Below are positions 371 to 15,648 of a stretch of 64,000 bases of DNA, in pieces; position 1 is the stretch's first letter, and each line of letters begins with the position of its first letter. The position numbers and the translations under genes were made by a program. This DNA comes from a virus. The notes under the pieces are model-generated. The model saw only the letters and a list, made by a program, of their open reading frames with translations, searched no databases and was not told where the DNA came from. The stretch lies in the IMG/VR virus record IMGVR_UViG_3300045988_097708, positions 1 to 64,000 of that record. The stretch is one strand, 5' to 3'.

Positions 371-694
371 ATGTACGCAATGCAGGGAACGATGAGCGTC
401 GGCGCATTTATGCGGAGCCTGAGCAGCGGCAAGGCACCGTGGCTGACGGTGGATGCCGCGGCGGAGAGTCGGCGGCAGGAACATTGCGGAGAGACAGGAC
501 GATTTTTGAGCGGCGCGGTGGAGGACAGCCAGCATGAGCCGCAGGAGCGCATAGACACGTGCATGAACTGCCCGTACCCGGAGTGCCGCAACTGCTGGGA
601 GCAGGCACGGGACCGGAAGCGCAAGCGGAAGCAGTCAGCTCGGGAGCTGGCAGACAGCCTGCGCCTGCGCCGGTGCGGGGAGGTGGCGGACTGA
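371..694 (+). CDS. hypothetical Cys-rich phage protein
   Basis: Internal ATG of ORF 101-694 just after the upstream stop; CxxC..CxxC near C-terminus; tight co-directional packing. Confidence 0.6.
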   Translation: MYAMQGTMSVGAFMRSLSSGKAPWLTVDAAAESRRQEHCGETGRFLSGAVEDSQHEPQERIDTCMNCPYPECRNCWEQARDRKRKRKQSARELADSLRLRRCGEVAD

Positions 695-969
695 TGGGCA
701 AGCAGCATTTGAGCCGGGACGACCGGATTTTCATGGACGGCAAGCGCAGAGGCACGCAGGAGTGCATGGACATGGTGGCGATGGCGTTGATCGACAAATG
801 CGGCTGGCACGTCTTAGAGGAGACATCGGACAGCCGGGACACCCACAGCATCGCGTATCTGTACGAGTGTCTGGAAAAGCTGGCGGAGGAGATAAACGAG
901 GGCCGCATCAAGCGGAAGCACATCAAGGACGTGCTGAAAGACGAGTGCGGCGTTGTGTTTGGAGATTAG
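694..969 (+). CDS. hypothetical phage protein
   Basis: ATG overlaps the upstream TGA (TGATG); internal start of ORF 559-969. Confidence 0.6.
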   Translation: MGKQHLSRDDRIFMDGKRRGTQECMDMVAMALIDKCGWHVLEETSDSRDTHSIAYLYECLEKLAEEINEGRIKRKHIKDVLKDECGVVFGD

Positions 970-981
970 GAGGTGATTTAG

Positions 982-2758
982 GTGAAACATTTAGGCGATA
1001 TTACGAAAATAAATGGGGCAGAGATTGAACCCGTTTGGTGTATTACAGGTGGTTCACCTTGTTAGACAGGATCTATCCATCGCCGGGAAACGCGCCGGTT
1101 TGGCGGGAGCGCGAAGCGGCCTGTTTATGAAGCAGGTGCGCATCGTAAAAGAAATGAGGGAGGCGGACAAAAGGAATGGACGGACAGGTGACATGGTTAG
1201 ACCTCGGTATCTCGTGTGGGAAAACGTGGTCGGCGCCTTTAGTAGCAACAAAGGAAAAGACTTCGCAGCCGTGCTCGAAGAGATCATCAAAATCGTCGAG
1301 CCGGAAGCCCCCGGTATTGAAGTGCCTGAAAAGGGTTGGCCTACCTGGGGAGGGTATCACGATGAAATGGGAGGACGATGGAGCGTGGTGTGGCGAACTC
1401 ACGACGCGCAATACTGGGGAGTGCCCCAACGCCGTCGTCGTATCTCGGTTGTCGCAGATTTTGGAGGAGACACCGCATCCGAAATACAATTTGACGGCGA
1501 AAGCGTGTCAGGGGATATTACGGCGAGCGGAGCGGCGGGGGAAGGACTTGCCGAAGCTGCTGAAAGAGGTTTTAATCCGGCAGGCGGGGACTGCATGACG
1601 GCTTGGGATTGCCAAAGCAAGCGCATTTTTGACACAAACGGAAAATCTCCCACACTGCAAGGCGGTGTTGGCGGTGGTGTGAACAATCCTGCCATATTTG
1701 CGGCTATTCCCATCAACGACAAAGCTACAAGATGGCAGGGCGGCGGAGAGAGCCGCAACCACGATGGCAGCGGCAACGGTCTTGGCATCGGCAAAGAGGG
1801 CGACCCATCCCCTACACTAACCGCCGGCGACCGCCACGGGGTAATGTGCATGACACCTTGGGACGCACAGAGCCAGCGCGTGTACGACGGAAACGGCGTT
1901 TCGCCTACGCTCAGCTCCCGTGAAAACAGAGGTCTGAACCGCGAGGCCGTACTGTGTGCCGGTTTTAAGCTGGGCAACAGTGAACAGGCGAGGAGCATCG
2001 GCTATCAAGAGGAACTGTCCCCTACACTGAACGCAGAGTGCGGAGGGAATAAGCCAACTGTGGTTGCACCAGCGGTGGCGCTGGACATGACACACGCCTG
2101 TGACGTCATCCGCGAGTGCGGGGAGCAAGTCCCGGCGTTGCAGGCTCGAATGGGGACAGGCGGCAATCAAGTGCCGCTGACATACGGCAGCGGCAACGGC
2201 CAAGCCAACGAAGCCAGCATTATGGCGGAGGAAGTCAGCCAAACGTTGAACACCATGCACGATGCTCAAGCAGTGATGTGTGAGGACGTGAGCCACGCGC
2301 TGCGGGCAAAGGCTGCCTGTGCGTACCGGGAGGACGCGGAGACATACCCGGTGCAGAACATGGTGGTGCGCCGATTGACACCGTTGGAATGCGAACGGCT
2401 GCAAGGATTCCCTGACCACTGGACGGACATCGGCGAATGGATAGACGAAAAGGGCAAGAAGCACAAGGACGCAGACAGCCCACGGTACAAGGCGCTGGGC
2501 AACTCCATCGCCCTGCCCTTCTGGGACTGGATGCTGCGGCGCATGGCGCGGTATCTGCCGGAGGGCGCGACGCTGGGGAGTTTGTTTGACGGCATTTCGG
2601 GGTTTAATGTCTGCTGGGCGAGAATACACGGAGCAGAGCACTGCCGGTGGAGTTCTGAAATTGAGCAATTCCCCATTGCCGTGACCAAAAAGCATTTCGG
2701 CGATGAGAAGTTAGGTGAGAAAGGCGACTGGGATATTTTTTCAGGAGGAATGACATGA
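982..2758 (+). pseudogene. DNA (cytosine-5) methyltransferase, motif order IV-VI-VIII-TRD-IX-X-I-II, interrupted by 4 nt inside motif IV
   Basis: GTG 982 frame gives GDITKI...GGSPC then TAG 1063-1065. The ORF 1013-2758 frame continues QDLSIAG, then LVWENV, QRRRR, LTPLECERLQGFPDHW, ALGNSIALPF, then SLFDGISGF and SEIEQFPIAV. Confidence 0.8.
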
Positions 2759-3081
2759 CAAGAGACGAGATCGTGACCGCGCTGCGGTGCTGCGAGCAGC
2801 ATAATAAATGCGAAGGAGCGTGTCCTCTGACTGCCGAGTTTGGATGTATCGAAAAAGCGATGGGATACGCTGCTGACCTGATCGAGAACCAGCAGAGGCA
2901 CATCGAGGCACTGTTGCAGGCCAACGCCGCCCTGCGGGATACCGTACTGCGGCGGGATGAGCAGATAGAAAAGCTGGCGGCAGATCGCAAGGCACTTATC
3001 AACGAGCTATGCCAATACTGCGGGAAGTACAAACACGCACACGAGGGCGCCTGTGACGGGTGCAAATGGAGGGAAATGTGA
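2755..3081 (+). CDS. hypothetical Cys-rich coiled-coil protein
   Basis: ATGA start/stop overlap with upstream gene; ORF track. Confidence 0.6.
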   Translation: MTRDEIVTALRCCEQHNKCEGACPLTAEFGCIEKAMGYAADLIENQQRHIEALLQANAALRDTVLRRDEQIEKLAADRKALINELCQYCGKYKHAHEGACDGCKWREM

Positions 3082-3413
3082 TGGATGCTATTGAATTTGT
3101 TAAGCAGTTGAGACGCATGGATGAAAAGGGAGTGCTGAAGAAGAGTTTCATTTATCTCCGTGCGGGCAGAGAGACGGATTCACCAGAGGACGTTGTTGCC
3201 GAAGTAGAGGAGTGGTCTGCCGCACACCCGCGCAAGACACGGCAGAGTGTGTTTCTGGACAACTATCCTTGTGCAAGGATTGACAGTCAGAGTGTATTGT
3301 ACGTCTGCCCAGCAGATGTCTATGGAAACAACGTATGCCCGAAGAAAAAAGATGCAGCTCCGATAATTTGCTACGACTGCCGCCGCGAGTTCTGGTCGCA
3401 GGAGGTGGAGTGA
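3081..3413 (+). CDS. hypothetical phage protein
   Basis: ATG overlaps upstream TGA; in frame with ORF 3060-3413. Confidence 0.6.
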   Translation: MDAIEFVKQLRRMDEKGVLKKSFIYLRAGRETDSPEDVVAEVEEWSAAHPRKTRQSVFLDNYPCARIDSQSVLYVCPADVYGNNVCPKKKDAAPIICYDCRREFWSQEVE

Positions 3414-3556
3414 TGGAAAATCTGTTGCAAAACTTCGCCAGCGGGCTGTGGATCGTGTTGGGCGTGTACTGTTTCTTCGGACTTAGAAAGTGGAACAAGC
3501 GGTTCAGTGAGCTGTATGACGAACTGAAACGGGAGGTGGAGCGATGGAACGGCTGA
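3413..3556 (+). CDS. small membrane protein (47 aa)
   Basis: TGATG overlap; hydrophobic segment GLWIVLGVYCFFGL. Confidence 0.5.
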   Translation: MENLLQNFASGLWIVLGVYCFFGLRKWNKRFSELYDELKREVERWNG

Positions 3557-4068
3557 CGAAACATAGTAAGCAAACATCGCACGAAAATGGTATCTGTTGC
3601 ACACATTTTTACGGCCCCGAATGCATCGAAGTTGGCGGGGACTGCTCCATGAATTGCAAGTGGGAAGAAGCGGCGTGGAGCCGCCTTGCTGCCTACGAGG
3701 ACAGCGAGCTTGAGCCGGAGGAAGTGTCTGCGCTGATTAAAGACTGGAGCGACCTTCGCACGACCATCGGAGAGTGCGGCGGCATCGACCGAGTAAAGGA
3801 GCTGGCCGAGGCCGACAAAGACGGTCGGCTGGTGGTGCTGCCGTCTAACAAAATGTTGACCAACGCAGACCGTATGAGGACTTCGACAAATCAGCAGTTG
3901 GCGAAGCAGCTTTACGATAACCAAAAAGAGCTTTGCAGAATGCTGTACAAAAAACTTGGGTTTGAAGATGAATTGAATTTTTCTGAGGATTACTCGGACA
4001 TCTTAGCTTGGTTAAACGCCCCATCGAAGGAGGCGGAGAAGGCATTGGAGGCGATGAAGGATGTTTGA
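3544..4068 (+). CDS. hypothetical Cys-rich phage protein
   Basis: ORF track; RLAAYEDSELEPEEV segment recalled from Clostridial phage proteins. Confidence 0.65.
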   Translation: MERLTKHSKQTSHENGICCTHFYGPECIEVGGDCSMNCKWEEAAWSRLAAYEDSELEPEEVSALIKDWSDLRTTIGECGGIDRVKELAEADKDGRLVVLPSNKMLTNADRMRTSTNQQLAKQLYDNQKELCRMLYKKLGFEDELNFSEDYSDILAWLNAPSKEAEKALEAMKDV

Positions 4069-4243
4069 GTTAAAACCTTGCCCGTTCTGCGGCTGTGACA
4101 AAATTTCAGTGCAGTATTTATACTTTAGGCCCTATGTCATTTGCGAGAAATGTCACGCGCAAATCCCTTGCTATAACACCTACGCAAAGGCGAAAGAAGC
4201 ATGGAACAGGAGGGCTTACAATGGCGACAAAGAGAGTGTGTGA
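4061..4243 (+). CDS. Lar-family restriction alleviation protein
   Basis: MFELKPCPFCG ... C..C ... EAWNRRA, the signature I recall for the Lar family. Confidence 0.7.
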   Translation: MFELKPCPFCGCDKISVQYLYFRPYVICEKCHAQIPCYNTYAKAKEAWNRRAYNGDKESV

Positions 4244-4400
4244 CCGCTGTGGCGCGGAGATCAACCCGTTCAACTCCGTCACCTATGCCGGTATGCGGCG
4301 AGTTAAGAACGACATAAACGACAACGACTACGAGCTGTGTGTTTCGTGCGCTCACGAACTACGGAGGTGGTTTAATGGGGAGGAGAAGGACAATGGCTGA
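4221..4400 (+). CDS. small zinc-ribbon protein
   Basis: CDRCG ... CVSC; internal ATG of ORF 4095-4400. Confidence 0.55.
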   Translation: MATKRVCDRCGAEINPFNSVTYAGMRRVKNDINDNDYELCVSCAHELRRWFNGEEKDNG

Positions 4401-4713
4401 ATACCTTGACAAGGAAGCGTTTAAGAAAAGCGTCGAGGAGCGTTATTGCAAGCCGTGCAAGGCGGAGGGAAAAGACCACAACGGATGCTGGTGTCGTGCC
4501 TGTTGGGTTGACGATATGCTCGACGAGGTAGAGTGTTTCCAGCCCGCTGATGTTGCCCCAGTGGTGCGCTGCAAGGACTGCAAGCACTGCGGGAAAGGAG
4601 AATGGGGTTTGTGGTGTACGATGCATGACGATGGATATGCGCGAGAGGACTATTTCTGCGCCGATGGAGAACGGATGGATGCAGGGCATGAGGATGTACT
4701 ACACCGTGTATGA
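4393..4713 (+). CDS. hypothetical Cys-rich phage protein (distant paralog of 62996-63268)
   Basis: MAEY start and ADVAPVV motif shared with 62996-63268. Confidence 0.6.
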   Translation: MAEYLDKEAFKKSVEERYCKPCKAEGKDHNGCWCRACWVDDMLDEVECFQPADVAPVVRCKDCKHCGKGEWGLWCTMHDDGYAREDYFCADGERMDAGHEDVLHRV

Positions 4714-4888
4714 TGCACGGACGGACGATGTGCTGGCATTCGGAAACGCCGCGCAGTGCGCCGTCATGCTGGGATGTGCAAGCTCCCAAACATTCCACTC
4801 CATCGTCAGCAAAGTGCAGCACGGGAAACATAAAAAATACAGCGTGGTCGTGGAGGATTTGGACAAGGAGGTGGAGGAACGCCCATGA
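4679..4888 (+). CDS. hypothetical protein
   Basis: GGAGA 8 nt upstream of ATG 4679; the start could also be 4688 or 4694. Confidence 0.5.
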   Translation: MQGMRMYYTVYDARTDDVLAFGNAAQCAVMLGCASSQTFHSIVSKVQHGKHKKYSVVVEDLDKEVEERP

Positions 4889-5391
4889 AGATTGAGCGTA
4901 TATGGGCGATGCCCAACAAGTGGACCTTTTCCATCAAGCCCATTGCCCAGCTGCTGCGGGAGGAGATGGGCGAGGGCGTTTGGGTTGACCCGTTCGCGGG
5001 GGAAAAATCACCGGCCGCGATCACCAACGACCTGAATCCGGAGCGGCACACGGATTACCACATGGACGCGCTGGCGTTTCTGAAAACCTTTGCAGATAAC
5101 TCTGTGGACGGTGTGCTGTATGACCCGCCGTATTCCCAACGGCAGGTCAAAGAGTGCTATGACGGCATACAGGGTGGCCTGAAATGGGACGGGAGAATGA
5201 CGTTTTGGAGCGAGACAAAGAACGAGGTGGCGCGAATCCTGAGACAGGGAGGAAAGGCCATCTGCTTTGGCTGGAACTCTATGGGGCTGGGAGCAAAGCG
5301 CGGGTTTGAAATGACGAGGATCCTGCTGGTGCCTCACGGTGGAAGCCGAAACGACACGATCTGTACGGTGGAGGTAAAAGAGAACGTATGA
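4885..5391 (+). CDS. DNA methyltransferase (amino-MTase, DPPY motif)
   Basis: VDPFAG (AdoMet loop-like) and LYDPPY catalytic motif; ATGA overlap with upstream gene. Confidence 0.75.
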   Translation: MKIERIWAMPNKWTFSIKPIAQLLREEMGEGVWVDPFAGEKSPAAITNDLNPERHTDYHMDALAFLKTFADNSVDGVLYDPPYSQRQVKECYDGIQGGLKWDGRMTFWSETKNEVARILRQGGKAICFGWNSMGLGAKRGFEMTRILLVPHGGSRNDTICTVEVKENV

Positions 5392-15437: not shown

Positions 15438-15512
15438 GCGGATTTAGTTTAACCGGGAAAACGGCGGTCTCCAAAACCGCAGTTCGTGGTTCGAGTCCTC
15501 GCGTCCGTGCCA
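15438..15512 (+). tRNA. tRNA-Trp (anticodon CCA), CCA encoded
   Basis: Hand fold: acceptor GCGGATT/CGTCCGT (two G-U pairs, one mismatch), D stem GTTT/AAAC, anticodon stem GCGGT/ACCGC, loop CTCCAAA, T loop TTCGAGT. Confidence 0.7.
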
Positions 15513-15572
15513 GATGAAAACGTTGGATCGTTTTCGCCCGAAAGGGAGTTTATGGGGGCGAAAGCCCCATAC

Positions 15573-15648
15573 GGAAATGTAGCTCAGTTGGCAGAGCATC
15601 TGACTGTTAATCAGAGGGGCGCAGGTTCAAGCCCTGCCGTTTCCGCCA
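15573..15648 (+). tRNA. tRNA-Asn (anticodon GTT), CCA encoded
   Basis: Hand fold: acceptor GGAAATG/CGTTTCC, D arm GCTC AGTTGGCA GAGC, anticodon stem TCTGA/TCAGA, loop CTGTTAA, T arm GCAGG TTCAAGC CCTGC. Confidence 0.85.

Follow-up and report, generated by a model that had tools for sequence, protein, structure and literature searches.

The window analysed here comprises 64,000 nucleotides (nt) of the IMG/VR virus record IMGVR_UViG_3300045988_097708 (positions 1 to 64,000) and carries, at 982-2758 on the plus strand, a gene for a C5-cytosine DNA methyltransferase (C5-MTase). Sequence comparison identifies this enzyme as circularly permuted, with the break between motifs II and III. The gene is probably located in the early region of a Clostridia (Oscillospiraceae-type) prophage, as a member of a very large II/III-permuted family of gut phages, and bears a cassette made of a TAG stop codon plus one base (TAG-N).

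The motifs of the window gene are arranged in the order III-IV-V-VI-VIII-TRDs-IX-X-I-II, the target recognition domains (TRDs) standing between motifs VIII and IX. The whole protein scored 109.7 bits against the Pfam profile PF00145 (cut-off of 22), as expected for a C5-MTase; its N-terminus matched profile positions 46-131 and its isolated C-tail positions 4-50. De-permuting the sequence raised the PF00145 score from 104.3 to 121.1 bits and gave a single colinear match at profile positions 4-131. The de-permuted sequence also aligned by BLASTP with P0201, a relative of canonical order, at 57% identity over residues 2-218 (E = 2e-80), and the alignment spanned the junction, where VTKKHFGDE followed by VKHLGDITKING in the window lies opposite VTRERFPD followed by MTHLGDVTRIDG in P0201. 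The LFDGISGF (motif I) and SSEIE (motif II) sequences at the C-terminus (2567-2707) align with P0201 residues 2-45, while M.HhaI (from residue 59) and M.HaeIII (from residue 48), both from motif III onward, align to residue 4-5 of the permuted protein. It is on these Pfam, P0201, and M.HhaI/M.HaeIII alignments that we placed the break. The region from motif X through motifs I and II (2477-2707) is read in one continuous frame, so that the new N-terminus lies between II and III, as in the engineered enzymes of Class B. The permuted start, V/M-K-H-L-G-D-I, corresponds to an internal methionine of the canonical relatives, in the segment HFP[DGN]M.HLGDI. Motifs VI (ENV), VIII (Q-x-R-x-R), IX, and X (GN) are all present and are invariant or nearly so in a 110-sequence alignment. 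The permuted homologue P0006 scored 97.3 bits against TIGR00675 and so fell just short of the cut-off (100.65), the match being split by the permutation.

A preliminary description of this stretch had listed the motifs in permuted order, and all those that it quoted were found at their coordinates and in that order. It had the order begin at motif IV; the succession from there on is correct, and the protein itself starts earlier, at motif III (LGDI). Its reading of the C-terminal segment as motifs I and II agrees with the Pfam match at positions 4-50 and with the P0201 alignment, and the break point, which it had supposed to be a different one, does lie at II/III, unlike in the natural permutants of the literature searched. 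Two of its statements have to be given up. KHLGDI and KKHFGDE had been taken as the two ends of one duplicated segment, an argument that fails because the two peptides are adjacent and not overlapping: they are neighbours in canonical relatives (VTRERFPD then MTHLGDV in P0201, against VTKKHFGDE then VKHLGDI in the window). The protein had also been described as a single chain with GGSPC/QDLS as motif IV, whereas these two halves are in different frames, separated by a TAGA stop and frameshift at the catalytic dipeptide. It had proposed comparisons by profile, by homologue, and by predicted structure; the profile search gave the N-terminal and C-tail positions quoted above, and the other two follow.

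All of the 120 best clusters at 90% identity carry the permuted order. Among the best 150 cluster representatives at 50% identity, at least 114 clearly show the same permutation, 6 have the canonical order, and 4-5 an order like that of Type H (TRD-IX-X-I...VIII); three thousand representatives scored below 1e-30. The same architecture recurs in hundreds of independent assemblies (JGI, ENA, Logan, and GenBank), flanked on either side by unrelated genes. The permutation characterises the family and is no local accident. It is very improbable that the gene is a mis-assembled tandem repeat, a pair of truncated adjacent genes, or an enzyme whose C-tail merely resembles motifs I and II: the isolated C-tail reached only E = 0.03-0.05 against Pfam, as such an artefact would have it, but one frame runs from X through I-II in all these assemblies and the de-permuted sequence gains 17 bits in Pfam and is colinear with a canonical relative at 57% identity, and we rejected the artefact on the Pfam de-permutation, the P0201 alignment, and the cluster survey.

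The relatives of canonical order include P0201, P0226, P0227, P0240, and P0252, and those resembling Type H are P0127, P0160, P0210, P0258, and P0267 (with 1637-3259 of locus L299 in this group). P0127 is encoded by a stand-alone gene in a phage-like contig, separate from the window gene, and has in common with the Type-B proteins the linker between motifs X and I (ALPFW.WM..RMA.YLPE.A.LGSLFDGIGGF), as have the other Type-H-like proteins. This shared linker suggests the remnant to be expected of one fused tandem duplicate trimmed at different places, and it is better support for permutation by duplication than the supposed duplicated ends. The alleles gain and lose TRD modules, with protein sizes from 484 to 734 amino acids (aa); in the window, the modules are repeated, the sequence ..SPTL.. 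occurring four times. In one permuted homologue, P0119 (927 aa), the ENV of motif VI is immediately followed by an intein, recognised by its Hint and LAGLIDADG Pfam domains.

We modelled the structure of P0006, an intact homologue 90% identical to the window protein, with AlphaFold2 (AF2), using 109 family members as input. The predicted local distance difference test score (pLDDT) exceeded 90 at residues 1-175 and 455-570, and the predicted template modelling score (pTM) was 0.60; the TRD region was poorly modelled, with low confidence. In the C-tail, a strand (528-531), a helix (537-546), a second strand (551-555), and a second helix (559-568), all with pLDDT above 90, are in the model the beta1-alphaA-beta2-alphaB unit of the class I fold. 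Foldseek returned M.HhaI entries as the top matches in the Protein Data Bank (PDB), with a root mean square deviation of 2.5 A over 155 columns (155-167 sequential columns, the alignment being sequential only). The C-tail may dock beside motifs III and X. In the canonical fold, the motif X helix packs against strand 1, and the fused chain could therefore rebuild a normal S-adenosylmethionine (AdoMet) pocket, as has been shown for engineered Class B enzymes. In the window family, the predicted assembly of this pocket is based on the pLDDT and pTM values of the model.

Permutants of this kind had been made in the laboratory. Kiss and co-workers built permutants of M.MpeI and M.SssI in 2018, among which Class B, whose N-terminus had been placed between motifs II and III, surpassed all others in activity by a wide margin (PMC5944983). 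In their REBASE scan, each of the 27 natural permutants had its break in the variable region and Class B did not occur, and they asked why nature seemed not to use the II/III break, suggesting a cost in AdoMet affinity (PMC5944983). The window family agrees with the engineered Class B enzymes in its II/III N-terminus and in that the motif X helix, the native C-terminus, is joined to motif I, the native N-terminus. The latter are laboratory enzymes of single, CG specificity, whereas the window family is natural, abundant in phages, and equipped with several TRD modules, and, unlike them, it has its own linker, some 20 residues long, and in many cases an extension at the C-terminus. The II/III break differs from that of all the natural permutants in the literature that we searched, namely M.BssHII, M.Alw26I, M2.Eco31I, M.Esp3I, M2.BsaI, and 22 REBASE entries. 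Enzymes of Type H (M.BssHII, M.Alw26I, M2.Eco31I, M.Esp3I, and M2.BsaI) belong to the same class and likewise have motif X before motif I in one chain, but they are broken in the variable region (TRD/IX-X-I..VIII) and keep both domains intact, whereas the break in the window gene splits the large domain after strand 2. The window gene is not of the M.BssHII type, as its motifs III-VIII precede the TRDs. Our literature search, in which REBASE itself was not queried, found no later report of natural II/III permutants, which is absence of evidence only.

The C5-MTases of the Bacillus phages SPR, phi3T, rho11s, and H2 are multispecific and have the canonical I-X order. Like the window family, the SPR-type enzymes are phage-borne orphans with tandem recognition modules between motifs VIII and IX; unlike the window gene, they keep the canonical order, and the element following motif VIII is in frame in them.

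The second finding concerns how the window gene is read. Its Shine-Dalgarno (SD) sequence, GGAGGTGA (969-976), read directly from the sequence, stands 5 nt before a GTG start at 982 and opens a frame of 27 codons (982-1062; VKHLGDITKINGAEIEPVWCITGGSPC) that contains motif III (LGDI; 991-1002), the strand before motif IV, and the first part of motif IV (GGSPC; 1048-1062), ending with the catalytic cysteine codon at 1060-1062. This peptide aligns with residues 59-85 of M.HhaI and residues 48-74 of M.HaeIII. The last 15 nt of the frame (1048-1062), directly 5' of the stop, form a patch, GGTGGTTCACCTTGT. The frame from GTG 982 ends at TAG 1063-1065, and the remainder of the methyltransferase is in the +1 frame. 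The alignment with intact relatives traces this break to 4 extra bases, TAGA (1063-1066), a TAG stop plus one base inserted between the Cys and Gln codons of PCQ, so that the site reads TGT-TAGA-CAG (1060-1069). From there, the main methyltransferase frame is continuous from QDLS to the stop (1067-2758). Motif IV, interrupted in the window copy, is intact in 82 of the 120 closest clusters.

The main frame starts with the second half of motif IV (QDLS; 1067-1078) and proceeds through motif V (1112-1156), the ENV block of motif VI (1205-1246), the PQRRRR block of motif VIII (1400-1468), and an F-x-F element (1478-1495) to several TRD modules (about 1586-2275). It then encodes motif IX (RRLTPLECERLQGFP; 2363-2434), motif X with the linker (YKALGNSIALPF; 2477-2557), the AdoMet loop of motif I (TLGSLFDGISGF; 2567-2626), motif II (SSEIEQFPIAV; 2642-2707), and a C-terminal extension (2708-2755) before the stop codon (2756-2758). 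Since this frame is +1 to that of GTG 982, public gene calls and open reading frame (ORF) finders give instead an ORF of 581 aa that starts at ATG 1013 and ends at 2758 (P0001/P0002). The first 18 codons of this ORF (MGQRLNPFGVLQVVHLVR) are an out-of-frame reading of the DNA that encodes the N-terminal peptide; no SD precedes ATG 1013, and a TAA lies just upstream in the same frame. Interrupted alleles have accordingly been deposited with a wrong N-terminus, MGQRLNPFGVLQVVHLVRQDLS.

More than 150 IMG/VR contigs share the insert, as do three gut-phage contigs from GenBank, and about one in three of the closest protein clusters has it. The N-peptides of the insertion alleles differ at up to half of their residues, and their synonymous sites are saturated (synonymous differences per site [pS], 0.79 for codons 2-22 and 0.76 for the 75 codons after the insert). 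Over codons 2-22, the ratio of nonsynonymous to synonymous differences (pN/pS) in 14 diverged insertion alleles was 0.37 in the peptide's own frame and 1.2-1.3 in the other two. The five codons before the stop, by contrast with their flanks, are near-invariant as GGT GGT TCA CCT TGT: their synonymous diversity is 0.00-0.16 (pS, 0.18), against 0.3-0.7 in the flanks, and the same five codons in uninterrupted permuted alleles show a diversity of 0.37-0.71 and never take the patch form. A scan that left these positions free found the exact patch in 106 of 119 contigs. Conservation sets in abruptly at the 5' end of the patch, and 3' of it no stretch is conserved. An SD-like GG[TA]GG within the patch occurs in 118 of the 119 insertion contigs and in 7 of 41 intact alleles. 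Every one of the 93 unique haplotypes begins with GTG, and the SD region of the insertion alleles is kept as GG(A/G)GGTGAT..TAG-GTG. The stop is followed by A in 105 contigs (TAGA), by C in 38 (TAGC), and by T in 3 (TAGT), and TAGG was not found. The insertion alleles thus present what is known of frameshift sites, an in-frame stop with a flanking cis element conserved across diverged homologues. These features of the cassette are those predicted by a cis-acting element and not by a neutral or tolerated lesion.

Several simpler accounts of the insert were tried and rejected. A sequencing or assembly error does not agree with its presence in many independent data sets. Reading of TAG as glutamine (code 15) was rejected since the window has no suppressor tRNA and the long phage ORFs are intact, and it would be insufficient because the frame would still be wrong. 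Reinitiation at the +1-frame GTG within GGT GGT fails in the GGA GGC and GGC GGT variants, which lack this GTG; the patch variants are non-conservative in the +1 frame, and no SD is conserved before the +1-frame GTG. A stimulatory hairpin, GGUG-GUU-CACC, folds no better than shuffled sequences, with one compensatory and four disruptive variants. Co-conversion by a homing endonuclease, or short-patch gene conversion, does not fit the one-sided and sharply bounded conservation, and the flanking genes are the same in both types of allele. Finally, we looked for an excess of decay in the insertion alleles and found none: among unique alleles, the downstream frame is intact in 49 of 100 with the insert and in 18 of 32 without it (Fisher test; P = 0.54).

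Judged from the sequence, the idea that the TAG-N insert is a programmed recoding site or translational gate has, in our estimate, a little less than an even chance of being right. The cassette, lineage-wide, consists of the GTG start, the patch, the TAG with its additional base, 27 codons after the start, and CAG. Because of the cassette, standard decoding stops right after the catalytic cysteine. A minority of the ribosomes pausing on UGU_UAG_A might then enter the +1 frame, by a no-slip +1 event or by a short bypass. Such rare frame entry would limit the level of a multispecific methylase that may do harm, or make it conditional; failing this, the allele would be a long-lived off state. The peptide at the junction would be GGSPCQDLSIAGK after a bypass and GGSPC[R]QDLSIAGK after a +1 shift, and a null allele would yield the 27-mer only. 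There are likenesses to the recoding sites of prfB, antizyme, and Ty3: the in-frame stop is early (codon 28 here, codon 26 in Escherichia coli prfB), and, as in prfB, a conserved 5' element has an SD-like core and the fourth base is biased to weak termination contexts.

A number of observations weigh against a gate. The site differs from prfB in that the P-site codon is not re-pairable, tRNA-Cys being unable to re-pair in the +1 frame (UGU to GUU), in that the SD-like GGUGG core ends 7 nt before the UGU P-site codon and not 3 nt as in prfB, and in that the stop is UAG and not UGA. A simple +1 shift would give PC[R/S]Q, with one extra residue in the catalytic loop; in-frame insertions of one codon at PCQ were sought among the IMG/VR alleles, and none was found except one TGA variant. 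The local hairpin was no better than that of shuffled sequence (z = -0.23). Additional frame breaks occur in about half of the alleles, whether or not these have the insert, and the whole family may therefore often be switched off. The conserved +1 ORF described below hints, moreover, that the enzyme may not work as a single chain.

Some of these points speak for the alternative that the allele is null, which we consider possible and put well short of even. A single 4-nt insertion, arisen once, would persist since losing the methylase carries no cost or is even of benefit, as it may be in hosts with methylation-dependent restriction, and recombination would relink it to fresh, intact flanks. 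The stop directly after the catalytic cysteine, with no plausible slippery codon, the lack of an in-frame PC-X-Q allele, and the frequency of further frame breaks are what a null allele would show, and the downstream sequence is sometimes identical to that of intact alleles, which indicates recombination. Two singleton variants follow the same patch, TGC-TGA-CAG (3 nt; L298, 7686-7726) and TGT-TAG-GGT-CAA (6 nt; L280, reverse strand, at the patch), and both genes are truncated or decayed downstream: L280 has several further frameshifts, and the downstream frame of L298 stops 155 codons past the site, close to the contig end. Nevertheless, a null allele leaves unexplained the one-sided, sharply bounded patch of 15 frozen nt, the invariant GTG, the exclusive use of TAG, and the missing G at the fourth base. 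It also has to face the purifying selection on the N-peptide across saturated synonymous divergence and the insertion alleles' freedom from excess downstream decay. Selection for loss of function should produce many different lesions and not one, and, to place as few as 19-27 nt in backgrounds whose differences reach the patch, very short double crossovers would have had to occur many times.

The third finding is an overlapping ORF of 140 aa (1176-1598, plus strand), +1 relative to the methyltransferase frame, which covers motifs VI-VIII and the linker. Its conserved part comprises SRLSQILEE (1443-1469) and KYNLTAKACQGILRRAERRGKDLPKLLKEVL (1482-1574). We compared selection between frames in 13 diverse single-ORF permuted alleles. 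Selection acts on the methyltransferase frame as far as PQRRRRI (pN/pS, 0.15-0.18); over SVVADFGG / RLSQILEE, both frames are frozen; and over codons 23-40 after PQRR, the +1 frame (TAKACQGILRRAERRGK) has a pN/pS of 0.17-0.20, against 1.7-2.6 for the methyltransferase frame, which is there junk-like. All 59 unique single-ORF alleles keep the +1 ORF open. By these codon comparisons, its conserved C-terminal half is under purifying selection.

This half gave tblastn matches in 135 annotated phage genomes. In five of five genomes checked, the match is +1 to the annotated methyltransferase coding sequence, and the linker in the methyltransferase frame is not conserved: these are P1 dmt (L301, 2222-2713), Vibrio phage 1.171.O, mycobacteriophage Lucky2013, Streptococcus phage Javan105, and Akkermansia phage Chantilly (L302-L305 for the last four). 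The conserved pattern, SRLSQILE..KY.LS.KAC.GILRR.E.RGK.LP..L..AL, is unannotated in all five records; the +1-frame peptide of P1 dmt, SLPPLLQMALQSVAK, is an example. Dmt of P1 has the same subfamily core as the window protein (a QRRRR motif VIII, then LFE.EG) and the same +1-frame peptide over motif VIII and the linker; unlike the window gene, it has the canonical order in its C5 part, is fused to a Dam-like domain, and lacks the TAG-N cassette. A literature search found no report of an ORF inside dmt, which again is absence of evidence only. The peptide had no sequence match in Pfam, NCBIfam, or PDB. AF2 predicted three helices of moderate confidence, in the last 50 residues only; over the first 90 residues, no selection was seen and disorder was predicted. 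The peptide may resemble the RLKDLLEE..KYYL element that follows motif VIII in SPR, which is a lead only.

At the junction between the linker and the first TRD, the window has a GGGG run (1586-1589, within GGCGGGGAC at 1584-1592), and a fifth G there would bring the +1 ORF into one frame with TRD-IX-X-I-II. The G runs of sister alleles at the equivalent junction are longer and toggle the gene between single-ORF and two-ORF states (L187 against L278/P0164). The G runs at this junction (..RIRGG/CDGGGKG..) and at WGG/YHDE differ by one G between alleles, and ORF ends in ..RIRGGL and ..CSPHQGGL are recurrent. Frame breaks of this sort disrupt about half of all alleles, and the toggling could be phase variation or transcriptional slippage. 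In the sister alleles L001 (4089-5946) and L278, the +1 frame continues into TRD-IX-X-I-II, giving two overlapping ORFs.

Such alleles recall M.AquI, a heterodimeric C5-MTase with overlapping alpha and beta ORFs, in that L001 and L278 are likewise split after motif VIII. The working enzyme might be made of two chains: the III-VIII piece would pair with a +1-frame piece carrying LSQILE..KY.LS.KAC.GILRR..RGK.LP, which in many sister alleles also holds TRD-IX-X-I-II, and the window frame would be one switchable state. We consider this unlikely without dismissing it. It would account for the change of the selected frame directly behind motif VIII, which single-ORF alleles show as well, for the +1 ORF being open in all 59 alleles, for the +1 frame running into TRD-IX-X-I-II in L001, L278, and alleles of the P0128/P0164 type, with the length of the junction G run setting which frame is fused, and for the retention of the peptide in P1 dmt and four other distant phages. 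Complementation between C5-MTase fragments has also been documented (PMC5944983). The window itself does not follow the M.AquI type, its frame being continuous over 1067-2758 after the TAGA; the second piece would here carry motifs I-II as well, and the ORFs overlap over a long stretch of more than 100 codons, part of which is dual-coding. In the window, III-VIII and TRD-IX-X-I-II share one frame and the +1 ORF ends at 1598, most genes (114 of 150 representatives) have a single frame, and the +1 product has no conserved start signal, on top of its unselected and disordered first 90 residues and its lack of database matches. Two chains would, in any case, alter the number of chains and not the permuted order, since motifs I-II still follow X.

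We put forward, tentatively and at less than even likelihood, that the gene is read in all three frames by design. TGT-TAG-N-CAR would then be a new recoding site (no-slip +1 or 4-nt bypass) gating the permuted methyltransferase, and, at the same time, the +1 ORF would be a genuine coding sequence, from gut Clostridia phages to P1 dmt and mycobacteriophages, that supplies or regulates a part of the enzyme.

The window is a prophage, carrying a DUF1064 gene and a tape-measure gene, with host genes from about 40 kb. Host-type genes (a class V aminotransferase and DUF4942) were seen from about 40100-41150 (minus strand) onward, and the prophage end or attachment site should lie near 40 kb because they begin there. 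A scan of genome contigs gave 7 loci of related prophages, all in metagenome-assembled genomes of Clostridia or Oscillospiraceae (one labelled Staphylococcaceae); with only 7 loci, the host range is only roughly known. Six tRNA genes lie at 15438-15648 (plus strand) and 41672-43248 (minus strand): tRNA Trp(CCA) and Asn(GTT) within the phage region, and Ile(TAT), Gly(TCC), an 82-nt Gly(CCC), and Thr(CGT) near the presumed boundary between prophage and host. Upstream of the methyltransferase, a gene of 91 aa (694-969, plus strand) is also found before intact alleles; the preliminary description rightly gave it no methyltransferase motif, and it had no Pfam match. Directly downstream lies a series of small Cys-rich ORFs with CxxC pairs (2755-4713, plus strand), typical of a phage early region. 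They are followed by a 168-aa ORF (4885-5391, plus strand) that has a DPPY motif like that of amino-methyltransferases and had no Pfam match at E = 0.001. In related phages with intact alleles (L094), an N6_N4_Mtase gene lies two genes upstream of the C5 gene.

The family shows that nature uses the II/III break on a large scale in human-gut phages, and the clade, in which canonical, Type-B, and Type-H genes share one X-I linker, is a natural test bed for permutation by duplication. Automatic naming may miss the permuted family because its TIGR00675 score falls just below the cut-off, and for interrupted alleles gene callers report a 581-aa protein with a wrong N-terminus. The permutation is a new natural variant of interest to specialists in methyltransferases; the cassette and the overlapping frame are more surprising. 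If TAG-N were indeed a recoding signal, it would be of a new type and would link the control of translation to methylation against restriction. Should the +1 ORF prove real, an overlapping coding sequence would lie unannotated in P1 dmt, a textbook phage gene.

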